Source of the DNA: Candidatus Sulfobium sp.
Lineage (GTDB): Bacteria > Nitrospirota > Thermodesulfovibrionia > Thermodesulfovibrionales > UBA6898
Direction: 5' to 3'
Assembly: GCA_037380845.1 (NCBI GenBank)
Contig: JARRRI010000033.1
Location: 1 to 22,257 of the forward strand
DNA: 22,257 bases
Shown here: positions 18,001 through 22,257 of the stretch, piece after piece
Layout of the letters: each line of letters begins with the position of its first letter
Position numbering within the stretch: position 1 is the first letter of the stretch
Position numbers: made by a program

Positions 18001-21000
18001 CCCGCCGGCCGTGTTCTCTATGGATGAATTCATCGATCACCTTAGCGAAGACATCCCCGCGGGAAGAAGGATTGAGACTATAGACGCCGTCTCCATCCTG
18101 TATGACATTCACAGGAGGGCGAAGGACCCTCTCGGCGGCTCCGGGTTCATGACACCCGACAGTTTCTTTTCCCTGGGTCTCAGGATATACAGGGACATAG
18201 AGGAGTTGTATATCGAAGGGGTCAGCGTCCGCAGCGTGGAAGAGGTCCGCCATTACTCCAATGAAGAGATACCGCAGCAATCGCTCAGGAGGCTGGAGTC
18301 GCTGGCATTCTTCTATGAAGAGTTCTACAGGCGTGTCGAGGAAAAGAGGTTTTCGACACGGTCCCTGAGATACCGCAGGGTGGCGGAGAGAATCGAAGGA
18401 CTCATACCTGAAACGGTCCGCAGGATAATATTCGCCGGGTTCAATGCCCTGACCGGGACGGAGAAGGTACTATTCACCAAAATGGGAGATTCGGGCTTTA
18501 CTGTCTTTCTATTTCAGGACGGTCCCGGCATGGACGAAATACTCGGACAGCTCGGCATGGAGGCGGAACATGCCGGACAGGGACCGTCCCGTCCGGATGT
18601 CAGTTTCTACGGCAGCCCCGACACCCACGGGCAGGTATATGCATTGGGACGGGTCTTCGATGCGGAGGCTGAAAGGGGAACGACTTTCGACGAGAGGACC
18701 GCGGTTGTACTGCCCAACTCGGAGACTCTTTTCCCAGTGCTTCGTCAGGGCCTGCCCTTTCTGAACGATTCGGAATATAACATCTCGATGGGATACCCCC
18801 TGCAGCGCACGCCGGTTTTCGGTTTTCTCAACAGCCTGATGGATCTCATCACTTCGATCGACGGCGACCGGGTCTATGTCCCTTCTTATATAAGGTTCGT
18901 ACTTCATCCGTATACCAAGAATATATATTTCAGGGGTAATGCGGAGATAACCAGGATAATGTTTCATGCCATCGAGGACGAATTGACAGTCAACAGGACG
19001 AAGACCTTCATGACGATCTCCGAAATAGAAGGGGATGAAAAGATCCTCAGCAGCGTGCTGGAACGTATTCCAAAAGAGGCAGGACTGACGGAGGGCGCTG
19101 TGAGAAAACATTTGAGGACCATCCACGAAAACACCATAGAGAGTTTCCTGTCTTTCGAAAACCTGATGGACTTTGCCTCCCGGTGCACGGGTCTCCTCAC
19201 GTTTATTTACAACAACAGCACCGCCAGGCTCCATCCCCTCTTCCATCCCTTTGCGGAGTCTTTTATCAGGTCGCTCGATGTCATCTCCCGGTCTCTGATG
19301 AAGGACATGGCTTTCACGGAAAGGACGAGTTATTTCAGTTTCCTGAGGAAGTACGTTGCGACTTGCCATACCCCTTTTGACGGAACTCCGGTGAAGGGGC
19401 TCCAGGTGCTGGGCTTCCTGGAAACGAGGAACATTAAATTCGAAAGGGTCCTCATTCTCGATGCAAACGAGGAAACCCTGCCGGATACGAAGAAGGAAGA
19501 CACCTTTCTTCCTTTCAAGGCCCGACTGGCCCTGGGGCTGCCGACGTACGTCGAAAGAGACAGGCTGGCGGCCTATTATTTTGAGACGCTGATCAGGGGG
19601 GCCCGGGATGTGCATCTCTTCTTCGTAGAAAATGACAAGAAAGAAAGGTCGAGGTTTGTCGAAAAGCTCCTCTGGGAAAGACAGAAGAAAGACAGAACGA
19701 CGGAGACGAGGGATTACGTGCGGACGGTCGAATACCGGGTGAGGCTAAGGAACGGCGAGCCCGGGGAAATCGGAAAAACGGGCGACATGACCGAATATCT
19801 GAGGAGCTTCACGTACAGCCCGACCGCCCTGGATGCCTACCTCTCATGCCAGCTTAAATTCTACTACAGGTATGTTCTGGGGATCGACAGGAAGGAAGGG
19901 GTTTCCGGGGACATCGAAAGGGCCGACATAGGGAAGTTCGTGCACGGCACCATCTCGGCATATTTTTCTCCAAAGAAGGGTATCCCGCTGAAGCCTGAAG
20001 ACCTTTCTGTTAAAGAGATGGAAGGCCTTGTGGACGAGCTTTTCGGGCGGGAGTACGGCGGCGGACTTTCCGGGGCGGTCTATCTCCTCAGGGCGCAGAT
20101 CAGAAGGCATATGAAAGACCTCATCCTCGGCTACTATCGCCCCCTTGCGAAGGAAGGCCCTTTTTTGGTCTTTGAAAGCGAAAAGGGGATAAGAGGGACG
20201 CTGGAGGGCTTCAAGTTAATGGGCCGGGTCGACAGCGTAGAAAAGAGAGGTGGCAGAATATGTATAGTAGATTACAAAACCGGTTCGAACCGTAACAGGC
20301 TCAGGATTGATTTTGACAGACTTGACCCGGAAGACAGGTTGACGTGGAGCCGGGCGATTGGGAGTCTCCAGCTCCCCGCTTACCTGCAGATGTACTCTCA
20401 GATGACCGGGACCGCGGCGGAAGAAATGGATGCCATGTTCCTGCTCCTGGGCAAATCCGTGATTAGCCGGGGCATCGAAGTTCCGCTGTTCGGCGAATGC
20501 GATCCCCGTCAGGCTCTGGAAGATCTGAAAGCTGTTACCACCGGCCTGCTCAACGAGATCATCGACCCCGGGGTTCCTTTCGGCCCCGCGGCGGACAGGA
20601 AGCTGGTCTGTCCGGGATGTAATTTCCGCTATATCTGCGGAACCCAATGGGTGCAGGGATAAATTTCACTTTCGTATGACCCTGCCTGTCGGCTGCCACC
20701 CCTGGACCTTCTTCTGCGGGTGATAGCTCTCGACTATATCCCCGACCTTTATCCTGCTGAAGTTTCTTAGCTTTATGCCTACGCGCTGACCGGGCGACGC
20801 GGTCTGAACCGCATGCTCGCCTATATGGAGCGACTCCATGGTGCCGGAATAAACGGGTCCCATGGCGGAGACGATGCGAAAGTGCTGGCCCACGGCAAGA
20901 CGGCCTTCTGTTACTTCGCACCCCGCAATGATCCCCCTTCTGCTGCTTTTGAAAAGGGCTATCACTTTTGCGGAACCCGTGATCTGCTCGGTGGGACCGT

Positions 21001-22257
21001 GGGGAAGTATGGCTTCGGCGAGGACCTTCAGGTCCTCAGTCAACGCATAGATGACATCGTAGAGCCTGACCTCGACGTTACGCTCCCTCAGCGCCTTCTC
21101 GACGCCGGAAAGAACATCCACCCCGAAGCCTATTATCAGCCTGCCCGCCGTTTCCGCAAGGAATGCGTCCGACGTGGTGACGGCACCCAGTCCCTGCCGT
21201 ATGATGTCGATATCCACTCCGGCCGCTGTAATCCCGGAAATGGCGGCCGCCGCTGCCTCGAGGCTTCCTTCGGAGTCGGCTTTAAGCACGATCTCAAGCT
21301 TCGTCCCTGCCTCCCGAAACGAAGTATTCCGTCCGGTCTGCCCGGCCGTACGCCTGGAACTGCGCTGTTTTCCGGGACGAGTTTCCCTGTGTGGATGTGC
21401 CACTTGTCTTGCTCCCTGGGCGAAATACCGTCAAAAAATTCCTACTGATAATACTAATGCTAGCACTGAATAGAAGACCTCGCAACAGAAGATCTCAGGG
21501 TGATTTCCTCCCGGTCGGGCTGAAATTACAGTTTTGGCTGAAATTCAATTTTGTGCTTGACAAAATGACTGTTTTGGTATCAAGATTTAGTTGAGGAGAG
21601 GAAGAGGGGATGGACAAAGTTAACTGTTGGGAGTTCTACGAGTGCGGCAGGGAACCCGGCGGGGGTAATGTGCGGGAATTCGGAACATGCCCTGTCGCGA
21701 CTGAAAGGAAGCTGGACGGAGTACACGGGGGTACGAATGCCGGCAGGGCATGCTGGGTCGTAGGCGGTACGCTTTGCAACGGAAAGGTACAGGAGACATT
21801 CCTGAAGAAATACGATGGCTGCATGGAGTGCGATTTTTATAAGAGAGTAAAGGAAGAAGAATCTCCGGATTTCAAGCTTTCAGCCAGCCTCTACATGATG
21901 CTCCATTAAAACCCTCCGTGGCCAGTTATAAGTAGTTTAAGTTTGCAACGTTCGCCGTCCCTGACCTGTCTACCCATACGTGTGCCATAACGATTGGCAT
22001 CTCCGTAGTACCGGGATTTGCAAAGCAAACTTCTACGCCTGTGCGTAGGGCGGTTTCAACCAGGCTAAGTGCGTCTGTATTTGTGAGGGAGATGAATTGA
22101 GTCATTTTGCCTATGGGGGACCACTGGTCATCCTTATGTTCGAAAAGGAGGGACTGCAAAGTATGTGGGCGGGCCGCATGGTGTCTGACACTGGAGGACC
22201 CGAGGGAAAAAGATCTTATTCCACGATTTGGCTGCACCTCACCACAAAGACCTTGTA

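Follow-up and report, generated by a model that had tools for sequence, protein, structure and literature searches.

The pocket that holds fMet-A76 in initiation factor IF2 is formed by residues Ser844, Arg846, Arg847, Phe848, Lys849, Phe804, Phe809, Ile812, Cys815, Glu860, Cys861 and Gly862, and enlarging Gly862 blocks the ligand (PMC4783127). The single replacement R847G weakens fMet-tRNA binding (PMC8709274). The isolated C2 domain suffices for this binding and is as good as the whole factor; the ribosome affinity of IF2 comes from its N-domain, G2 and G3, and isolated C1 has been assigned no function (PMC4611024). In ribosome complexes, Tyr772 and Gly726 of IF2 lie beside the sarcin–ricin loop (SRL) or are stacked on A1067 and A2660 (PMC4783127; PMC9192638; bioRxiv 10.1101/172825), and the conserved helix-12 tyrosine steadies the catalytic His in both eIF5B and IF2 (PMC9192638; bioRxiv 10.1101/172825). 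Published surveys make no mention of an IF2 duplicate in bacteria, and a literature search covering main texts without supplements, and few subscription papers, returned no paper on the family described here.

Gene, domains and predicted promoter of an IF2 paralogue

The window, the whole stretch of Candidatus Sulfobium sp. DNA that was analysed, is 22,257 nucleotides long. On its minus strand, an open reading frame at 20666–21403 with a GTG start encodes a protein of 245 residues; the assignment draws on the reading frame, domain matches, ungapped alignment to IF2 and dN/dS. A Shine–Dalgarno-like AGGGAG (21412–21417, minus strand) lies 8 nucleotides 5′ of the GTG, and L033, a close relative, has ATG at the corresponding position. 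An in-frame stop nine codons 5′ of the start gives a stop-to-stop frame of 254 amino acids.

Residues 30–126 match Pfam IF-2 (PF11987; E = 4e-24) and residues 157–224 match EFTU_D2 weakly. Residues 35–227 align with residues 688–880 of Escherichia coli IF2 over 193 positions free of gaps, and the alignments to the IF2 structures 3jcj and 7uiu are also ungapped. Pfam, alignment and fold matches all give the IF2 order of C1 (III), helix 12 and C2 (IV) barrel. The G domain of IF2 and its domain II are absent 5′ of this unit, and its TIGR00487 score of 148 bits, covering model positions 384–583 of 587, is below the cut-off of 424. The survey's finding of a C1–C2-only protein beside a normal infB is borne out by the ungapped alignment and by a full-length infB at C4:92538–94934.

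The N-terminal tail (residues 1–32; 21308–21403, minus strand) is basic, unconserved and predicted to be disordered (pLDDT below 50); across the family such tails have a median length of 20.5 residues and a net charge of +3. Domain C1 with helix 12 (residues 33–133; 21005–21307, minus strand), delimited by Pfam, alignment and fold, keeps Gly73 and Tyr119 (E. coli Tyr772) and carries the family-specific residues E37, E84, T85 and R88. The C2 barrel (residues 139–228; 20720–20989, minus strand), defined by alignment and column counts, contains a rebuilt fMet-A76 pocket made up of I148, C162, S191, H193, I194, V208 and G209, together with a basic FKSSRRG loop and an SAMGP hairpin. The C-terminal tail (residues 229–245 and the stop codon; 20666–20719, minus strand) is family-specific by column counts, ends in a short predicted strand and has pLDDT values of 82–97 in a model built from a deep alignment. 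Its WxPxG motif, reported by the survey, recurs with W236 in 177, P238 in 173 and G240 in 174 of 186 members.

Upstream, a −35-like hexamer TTGCGA (21480–21485, minus strand) is followed after 17 bp by an extended −10-like GTGC-TAGCAT (21457–21466, minus strand), which has C where promoters typical of the class have A. Both belong to a sigma70-type motif, TTG-N16-nTGnTAnCAT, present 5′ of the paralogue in 31 of 72 dereplicated loci; shuffled controls gave a mean of 0.03 and a maximum of 1, and TTG at spacings of 14, 15, 17 or 18 before nTGnTAnCAT occurred in none of the 72. A conserved promoter proper to the family is predicted from sequence; a generic promoter scan did not pick it up. The motif is also found at glgE and gnd in the host genus, and it is nearly absent from neighbouring genes (1 of 121, msrAB, dsrE and ferritin included). 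A regulon common to the paralogue and Usp, hinted at by the top genome match and by one Usp-paralog operon, was rejected: control promoters of Usp orthologues have A at the paralogue's C position in 15 of 29 cases and C in just one. A regulon shared with dnaJ was likewise rejected (2 of 30). In 71 upstream regions, a set of nine regulator motifs had 0 or 1 matches. No sigma factor matching the motif was identified; the candidate compared over 301 genomes, one of five RpoD-like proteins, has close orthologues in 7 of the 8 carriers within the host's own family and in 7 of the 28 non-carriers there, and none scored above threshold in family f3, which has seven carriers.

Distribution, descent and neighbourhood

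The paralogue gene is genuine, small and conserved, and its carriers are sulfur-cycling bacteria. Within the host class it is carried by 36 of 301 genomes, with a second IF2 match in 34 of the 36; the remaining 265 lack it, as do all 135 class genomes smaller than 2.5 Mb, and it was found in none of 156 genomes from other families of the phylum. The range into Desulfobacterota, claimed by the survey, holds to the extent of Atlas cluster taxa and one named organism, Desulfacinum infernum DSM 9756, a cultured carrier of a divergent member. The earlier count of 796 proteins recurs, among 2959 candidates, with the best 120 at 53–73% identity; only these 120 were inspected, and 796 is not a family size because plain IF2 fragments may be included. 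The survey's 77 GTDB loci were not recovered: a scan of GTDB contigs with a single protein as query yielded two distant Anaerolineae loci, at 28–31% identity. Viral contigs gave 21 pattern matches, none a relative, and a plasmid collection 52 matches, all below 60% identity, the 15 listed ones at 29–36%. The locus set analysed comprises the 36 carrier genomes and 80 metagenome loci, 116 in total.

In a tree of 45 paralogue and 45 IF2 rows the two groups separate with support 100, upholding a clade of its own, and the stem between them is long (0.89 + 0.34 changes per column). Mean identity is 59% within the family and 33% to IF2. The paralogue phylogeny tracks the host families; most likely the gene arose long ago by duplication of IF2's C-terminal half and has been inherited vertically. 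It is under purifying selection, with a median dN/dS of 0.17 over 45 disjoint pairs; against the same-genus orthologue, dN is 0.157 and dS 0.94.

The stand-alone state is supported. An upstream in-frame stop lies at most 133 codons from the conserved core in 107 of the 116 loci; of the other nine, five run into a contig edge, and the reading frames of the remaining four are just 277–361 residues long. No GTPase-fused form was found among 7999 candidates, where proteins of 442–2000 residues all score at or below 176 bits, against 246–400 bits for the family loci. The survey's description of a repurposed module and not a fragment stands in its second half, on the strength of the dN/dS and the predicted promoter; the repurposing is what we infer.

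Neighbours vary, as the survey had stated. No partner gene is fixed, and the commonest, msrAB, occurs in 18 of the 116 loci, in the fetched flanks of 8 of 36 genome loci and in 12 of 63 dereplicated loci; 51 of the latter are without it, all 12 positives belong to one sub-clade, and it is absent from the window. The paralogue tends to lie close to msrAB and to co-occur with it: of 36 carriers 32 have msrA, against 77 of the 130 non-carriers with genomes of 2.5 Mb or more; the co-occurrence is not significant inside any host family. Redox and stress genes recur near the paralogue; in one host family it follows rpsA-sppA-ihfB, and a DEAD-box helicase is nearby in seven loci. Neither a tRNA nor a synthetase gene is a fixed neighbour, and no GTPase gene was detected among 230 neighbour reading frames scanned.

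The C1 and C2 domains and what the protein may do

Tyr119 (183 of 186 members) and Gly73 (185 of 186) are the equivalents of the SRL- and H43-contacting residues Tyr772 and Gly726 of IF2, and 13 of 17 C1 columns conserved at 90% or more in IF2 remain so in the paralogues. The G domain, the other contact of this tyrosine in IF2, is missing. The predicted C1 superimposes on that of IF2 with an rmsd of about 2 Å over some 100 residues. The model built from the deep alignment looks like extended IF2 on the ribosome (7unv; Z 16.4, rmsd 4.8 Å, 204 residues), and the fold matches include 7pua and 7pub. With pTM values of 0.58–0.62 the domain orientation is unsure; the first model agrees with neither pose of IF2, and the second could be an echo of the solved IF2 structures. 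Covariation over 248 rows and 213 columns yielded no usable contacts, either between the domains or for the tail. A lock in the compact-IF2 pose, prompted by the family-specific residues Q94, M181, G182 and P183 at that interface, is unsupported, since neither model showed that pose (rmsd 14.6 and 19.6 Å to compact IF2, 7unq).

Judged from its residues, the fMet site has been remodelled, in agreement with the survey. Over 186 members, the equivalents of R846, R847, F848, K849, E860, C861 and F809, seven of the twelve pocket residues, are replaced, as is that of R801; the five forming the pocket floor, F804, I812, C815, S844 and G862, are kept at 98–100%, and to call the site lost would therefore be too strong. 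The K/R-R of IF2 becomes H in 180 and I in 159 of 186 members, and ECG becomes Q/K/R-V/A-G, changes that the survey had also described; K-R-F-K and E/D-C-G are present in all 21 host-class IF2s checked. Cys162 is found in 185 of 186 members despite the loss of its disulfide partner C861; the host's own IF2 has Ser at this position, and Cys815 occurs in 104 of 111 IF2s. His193 is present in 180 of 186, and R155, in a more basic β1–β2 loop, in 182. The net charge of C2 is +4.3 in the paralogues versus +0.3 in IF2, and both tails are basic. D784, F799 and K800, the rRNA contacts of C2 in compact IF2, are not kept.

Our preferred reading, to which we give a probability of about 0.4, is that the paralogue is a GTP-independent IF2 mimic that sits at the C1/C2 site of IF2 on the ribosome, does not read fMet and, under stress, damps translation or parks it. 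It would work without GTP and without recognition of the formyl group. C1 would dock between uS12/h5 and the SRL by way of Tyr119 and Gly73, and the C2 barrel, more basic than that of IF2, would together with the basic tails face 23S rRNA or a tRNA acceptor end. Having no G domain and no hydrolysis-driven release, the protein would be a passive occupant, competing both with IF2 and with further translational GTPases, or parking idle ribosomes, and its own promoter would turn it on under stress or slow growth. Ribosome binding, competition and timing under stress are features that we infer. In favour of this reading are the two kept domains and their spacing, Tyr119 and Gly73, the conserved C1 columns, the basic C2 and tails, the replaced pocket residues, the likeness to 7unv and msrAB; moreover, C2 alone is enough for fMet-tRNA in IF2 (PMC4611024), yet C1 has been kept, which suggests a partner bigger than a tRNA. 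Against it, the retention of Tyr119 and Gly73 could reflect folding, the rRNA-touching residues of C2 are not kept, the modelled domain orientation is uncertain and, with the affinity domains N, G2 and G3 missing, this half may bind weakly. The link to stress is soft, given the window without msrAB, the single sub-clade, the lack of significance within families and a motif not common to the neighbours.

A possible though doubtful alternative is that the protein binds tRNA ends free of the ribosome, the C2 pocket taking the 3′ CCA of non-formylated, deacylated or damaged tRNA (bearing oxidised Met, for example) and shielding or sequestering it; Cys162, Ser191 and His193, at the old aminoacyl site, could even make up a small editing or deacylating centre. 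The kept pocket floor with its Gly862 equivalent, Cys162 without its disulfide partner, His193, the R155 loop, the autonomy of isolated C2 in IF2 (PMC4611024) and the prominence of msrAB are all consistent with this, but the retention of C1 and Tyr119 is left unexplained, the cysteine is common in IF2 too and may be structural, and tRNA or synthetase genes are not fixed neighbours. We think it unlikely that the paralogue, which would be the first bacterial IF2 duplicate, is a GTP-independent 'anti-IF2' served by a dedicated RpoD-like sigma factor, with its helix-12 Tyr in the GTPase centre and a Cys/His/Ser pocket for non-formylated, deacylated or oxidised tRNA ends, stopping or proof-reading initiation on exposure of these anaerobes to oxygen.

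A job outside translation, as a redox or stress protein or another RNA or protein binder using the IF2 fold as scaffold only, is improbable. The long stem, 15 columns that are family-specific at 90% or above, the recurrent redox and stress neighbours and a Cys at position 42 in 137 of 186 members point that way; the most conserved C1 surface residues of IF2 and the exact two-domain spacing are nevertheless kept, and C2 has become more basic, as expected of an RNA binder. We give little credence to a half-factor acting in trans, which would pair with IF2's G domain, or with that of some other translational GTPase, whether bound to the ribosome or away from it, and tune that GTPase by giving or withholding the helix-12 Tyr that positions the catalytic His. 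Such a role for the tyrosine has precedent in eIF5B and IF2 (PMC9192638; bioRxiv 10.1101/172825), and E84, T85 and R88 fall within residues 77–88, a segment that, by comparison with compact IF2, would face the G domain. This surface has diverged from IF2, however, GTPase genes are absent from the 230 neighbour reading frames scanned, and 34 of 36 carriers have a second IF2 match; each of 20 C-terminal halves of IF2 checked in the class has a C1–C2 of its own.

Equally hard to credit is a placeholder on immature ribosomal subunits, like mitochondrial IF2 in trypanosome small-subunit assembly. mt-IF2 is placed on assembly intermediates (PMC8784144), 7pua and 7pub are among the fold matches, and rpsA-sppA-ihfB and the DEAD-box helicase are neighbours in some loci; an accessory role nevertheless fits the patchy presence, with 265 of 301 class genomes lacking the gene, better than a core assembly step. 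Finally, that the gene is a pseudogene, a split infB or a fragment left by assembly is scarcely credible: among the 36 genome copies one (G203) carries a frameshift and another (G029) lies across an assembly gap, and many members are labelled 'IF-2' in databases, but the separate clade, the dN/dS of 0.17, the low identity to IF2, the conserved start and predicted promoter and the intact infB elsewhere refute a decaying fragment.

Comparison with known systems

A natural, selected GTPase-less C1–C2 protein would be a new part in translation control, and it makes testable what C1, to which no function is attributed (PMC4611024), does alone. It matters also for annotation, because of the many 'IF-2' labels.

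Set against the C-terminal part (about 25 kDa) of bacterial IF2, the paralogue has the same two folds in the same order and spacing, and the equivalents of Tyr772, Gly726, F804, I812, C815, S844 and G862 are common to both. It differs in lacking the N, G and II domains, in being a separate gene with its own predicted promoter, and in the replacement of the equivalents of R801, F809, R846, R847, F848, K849, E860 and C861; its C2 is more basic, and it has an extra basic N-tail and the WxPxG C-tail. IF2 is single-copy and found in all genomes, whereas the paralogue is confined to 36 of 301.

Trypanosoma brucei mt-IF2 is an IF2-family protein in a role beyond initiator-tRNA delivery (PMC8784144), as is predicted for the paralogue. 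mt-IF2 is a full-length factor, whereas the paralogue, a bacterial duplicate, comprises just the last two domains. Translation-factor paralogues have been reused as ribosome regulators in Tsr1, an inactive GTPase mimic, in Balon, a release-factor-like hibernation factor, and in ArfB. None of these is known to derive from IF2 C1–C2, and their ribosome binding has been shown, whereas the paralogue is known from sequence and models; what it appears to share with them is a shape fitted to the ribosome, kept in a protein whose catalytic or specificity site is gone.

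A family of short IF2 relatives

The paralog, a protein of 245 residues, is encoded at 20666–21403 (minus strand) from a GTG start, which AGGGAG precedes by 8 nt. Residues 30–126 match Pfam IF-2, residues 157–224 give a sub-threshold match to EF-Tu domain 2, and NCBIfam TIGR00487 is matched over its last 200 model positions only (148 bits; cut-off 424). Ungapped alignments pair residues 35–227 with 688–880 of E. coli IF2 and residues 30–228 with 634–832 of P. aeruginosa IF2; adding 653 or 604, respectively, converts the numbering. The host genome carries a full-length infB (contig C4, 92538–94934), 33% identical to the paralog across the common part, and a search of this genome gave no third copy. 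The GC3 of the paralog gene, 0.68, is in line with that of neighbouring genes. Host IF2 has Ser at the E. coli Cys815 position, so that the C815–C861 disulfide cannot form; 20 other IF2s of the class Thermodesulfovibrionia lack this change.

A word-indexed search returned 796 matches among 2959 candidates, the best 120 of which span 183–288 aa at 53–73% identity; the named relatives among these 120 are Nitrospirota and Thermodesulfovibrionales. A profile made from 58 of them identified 36 carriers in 301 genomes of the class (202–390 bits, open frames of 222–364 aa), the next-best class match listed being an 807-aa frame at 173 bits. A second profile match is present in 34 of the 36 carriers, and the paralog was found by profile in 0 of 156 genomes from phylum families outside the class sample. 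Atlas clusters with 54, 207 and 74 members are chiefly from Nitrospirota or Thermodesulfobacteriota, and the cultured Desulfacinum infernum DSM 9756 has one divergent member (P0142), which is without the IALFKSSRKG stretch of the β1–β2 hairpin and the WxPxG tail. When 1.84 billion representatives were scored, the top 20 or so were short family members or pieces, followed by ordinary IF2s. Among 7999 candidates of 442–2000 aa no protein scored above 176 bits, and GTP_EFTU is present in all 120 of those listed.

The survey's finding that these proteins are a family in a clade of their own, and not a fragment, is borne out by this split in profile scores and by three further results. Across 116 loci (the window, 80 metagenome and 35 genome loci), the paralog ORFs are 206–361 aa, and an in-frame stop lies within 133 codons upstream of the conserved core in 107; five of the other nine reach the contig end and four are just longer. 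In a tree of the first 45 of 54 paralogs and 45 of 83 IF2s, both dereplicated, the two groups separate at an SH-aLRT of 100. The median dN/dS is 0.17 (range 0.10–0.51; 45 disjoint pairs), and it is likewise 0.17 between the window paralog and its same-genus orthologue. On the tree of 36 genome copies, of which one is frameshifted and one lies across an assembly gap, host family changes five times for five families (minimum 4; shuffled mean 19.3), a pattern in keeping with vertical inheritance and frequent loss.

Pocket residues and predicted structure

Columns were counted in 186 of 250 paralogs and 111 of 117 IF2s, dereplicated at 90%, the IF2 set being skewed to the best scorers against the paralog profile. 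Of the 12 residues of the fMet-A76 pocket named in PMC4783127, seven are replaced across the 186 paralogs and five are kept. The equivalent of R846 is His in 180 and that of R847 is Ile in 159; F848 becomes Gly or Glu, K849 is variable, F809 becomes Lys or Arg, E860 becomes Gln, Lys or Arg, and C861 becomes Val or Ala. R801, which belongs to the NMR-defined pocket (PMC4611024), is Ile in 159. The equivalents of F804, I812, C815, S844 and G862 are retained at 98–100%. K-R-F-K and E/D-C-G are intact in all 21 class IF2s checked. Since R847G weakens fMet-tRNA binding by IF2 (PMC8709274), these replacements indicate that canonical fMet recognition has very probably gone, with the pocket floor still open. 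Without a G domain, with its pocket replaced and as an accessory protein, the paralog is not a member of IF2.

Of 17 columns in domain C1 that are highly conserved in IF2, 13 are kept, Tyr119 and Gly73 among them. Tyr119 is present in 183 of 186 paralogs and Gly73 in 185; PMC9192638 and PMC4783127 place their IF2 equivalents at the sarcin–ricin loop (SRL) or stacked on A1067 and A2660, and the same Tyr positions the catalytic His (bioRxiv 10.1101/172825). The C2 equivalents of D784, F799 and K800, which touch rRNA in compact IF2, are not kept, and this counts against ribosome docking. The mean net charge of C2 is +4.3 in paralogs versus +0.3 in IF2, and C1, at −5, shows no shift; the C-tail carries +3.4 and the N-tail about +3.

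The top fold matches to AlphaFold models of the paralog were all IF2. The first model, with the tail (pLDDT 81.7), fits neither extended nor compact IF2. The second, without it (136 rows; pLDDT 93.3), resembles extended ribosome-bound IF2, with an rmsd of 3.2–4.8 Å over about 200 residues, and bears no resemblance to compact IF2 (19.6 Å). With pTM near 0.6, the predicted domain orientation is tentative.

Promoter motif and gene neighbourhood

A k-mer count of DNA upstream of the paralogs yielded TTG-N16-nTGnTAnCAT, which we take to be a −35 hexamer, a 17-bp spacer and an extended −10. Among the 72 dereplicated loci whose upstream DNA reaches 200 nt or more, 31 have it at exactly this spacing; at the window gene it runs over 21485–21457 (minus strand). 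As the motif came from the very regions that were scored, the weight of this evidence rests on spacing and controls. Spacings of 14, 15, 17 and 18 gave no loci, shuffled upstream DNA gave 0.03 (200 shuffles), and 1 of 121 neighbour genes had the motif. Usp orthologues from across the class share this extended −10, but A stands where the motif has C in 15 of 29 and C in one, so that the C is a conserved departure. From its conservation, spacing and controls, the paralog gene is predicted to have its own long-conserved expression signal.

The motif matrix found 21 sites in the host genome versus 4–11 for shuffled matrices. Host sites that are C-type or high-scoring precede glgE, gnd, a short-chain dehydrogenase, ackA, dnaJ, dedA, usp, rodZ, dciA and others; glgE and gnd keep the motif in 4/4 genomes of the genus, glgE is without it in four genomes elsewhere, and dnaJ carries it in 2 of 30. 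The strict pattern gave six matches, versus three for the control, across five near-complete carrier genomes, and in two genomes (L174, L178; G157, G185) it stands before genes for a septum-formation initiator and a GH57 glycoside hydrolase. Host sigma factors comprise one ECF and five RpoD-like proteins (441–550 aa; L168–L172 on contigs C15, C54, C4, C25 and C31); two of the five match Pfam region 1.1, three do not, and region 2.4 varies among them. Close orthologues of one of the RpoD-like proteins, looked for in the 301 genomes, occur in 7 of 8 carriers and 7 of 28 non-carriers of the host's own family, while none reached the threshold in a family with seven carriers. That an alternative sigma reads the motif is only a possibility.

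No fixed partner gene was found across the loci examined. The commonest neighbour is msrAB (18/116 loci; 12/63 dereplicated; 8/36 genome loci), whose adjacency changes seven times on the paralog tree and is confined to one sub-clade; it is absent near the gene in the window. Carrier genomes are at least 2.5 Mb in 36 of 36 cases, and 0 of 135 smaller genomes have the paralog. msrA occurs in 32/36 carriers versus 113/265 non-carriers (77/130 of those of at least 2.5 Mb); related genomes are not independent, and no test within families was significant. DsrE, ferritin, rubrerythrin, thioredoxin, peroxidase, Usp, Hsp20 and DEAD-box helicase genes were also seen. In genome G091, the paralog starts 19 bp downstream of a Usp gene that has the same orientation and carries the motif (L137, 7756–8697), so a joint operon is probable there. 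In one host family (L130, L134, L136, L147, L088) the paralog comes after rpsA-sppA-ihfB in the same orientation, yet retains its own motif.

Within the window, addB converges on the paralog gene with a 3-nt gap. The antisense 211-aa ORF (20813–21448, plus), with no Pfam match, is probably a shadow frame. The divergent two-CW domain gene (21610–21909, plus; NF045718, 113 bits) does not belong to the recurrent neighbours. The AddA-like helicase (14856–17837, plus), when set against a relative of 78% identity, has an in-frame gap of 31 residues after residue 369, and the missing residues include DEFQD, presumably helicase motif II; the gap may be genuine or may stem from misassembly. Domain matches identify a MalT/BTAD-type regulator (3835–7017, minus), a DsrE2 sulfur carrier (8469–8951, minus) and a YtxH-like protein (12941–13429, plus).

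A possible role

Our leading reading, tentatively put at about 40%, is that the paralog is a GTP-independent IF2 mimic, which would bind the ribosome at the C1/C2 site of IF2, would not read fMet and might damp initiation or park ribosomes under stress. IF2 owes its ribosome affinity to domains N, G2 and G3 (PMC4611024), all missing here; our guess is that the basic tails may make up for them. The main rival, a protein that binds or edits tRNA ends, is the less probable of the two: the retained floor of the pocket, together with Cys162 and His193, speaks for it, but tRNA binding by itself does not readily account for the kept C1, the SRL-facing Tyr and the exact spacing, because IF2 needs no more than C2 for such binding (PMC4611024). 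A role outside translation is unlikely. Slightly less likely still are a partner acting in trans on a GTPase, with no GTPase among 230 neighbouring ORFs scanned (15 of 214 batch representatives, mostly from clusters scanned before, were omitted), and, equally, a placeholder in ribosome assembly. A pseudogene is scarcely credible.

The available parts of PMC1780047 and PMC4342817 report no bacterial IF2 duplication, and a 2026 IF2 survey dropped matches annotated hypothetical (bioRxiv 10.64898/2026.02.08.704698). Our literature search found no published account of a GTPase-less IF2 C1–C2 family. The reuse of translation-factor paralogs is itself a known kind of event.
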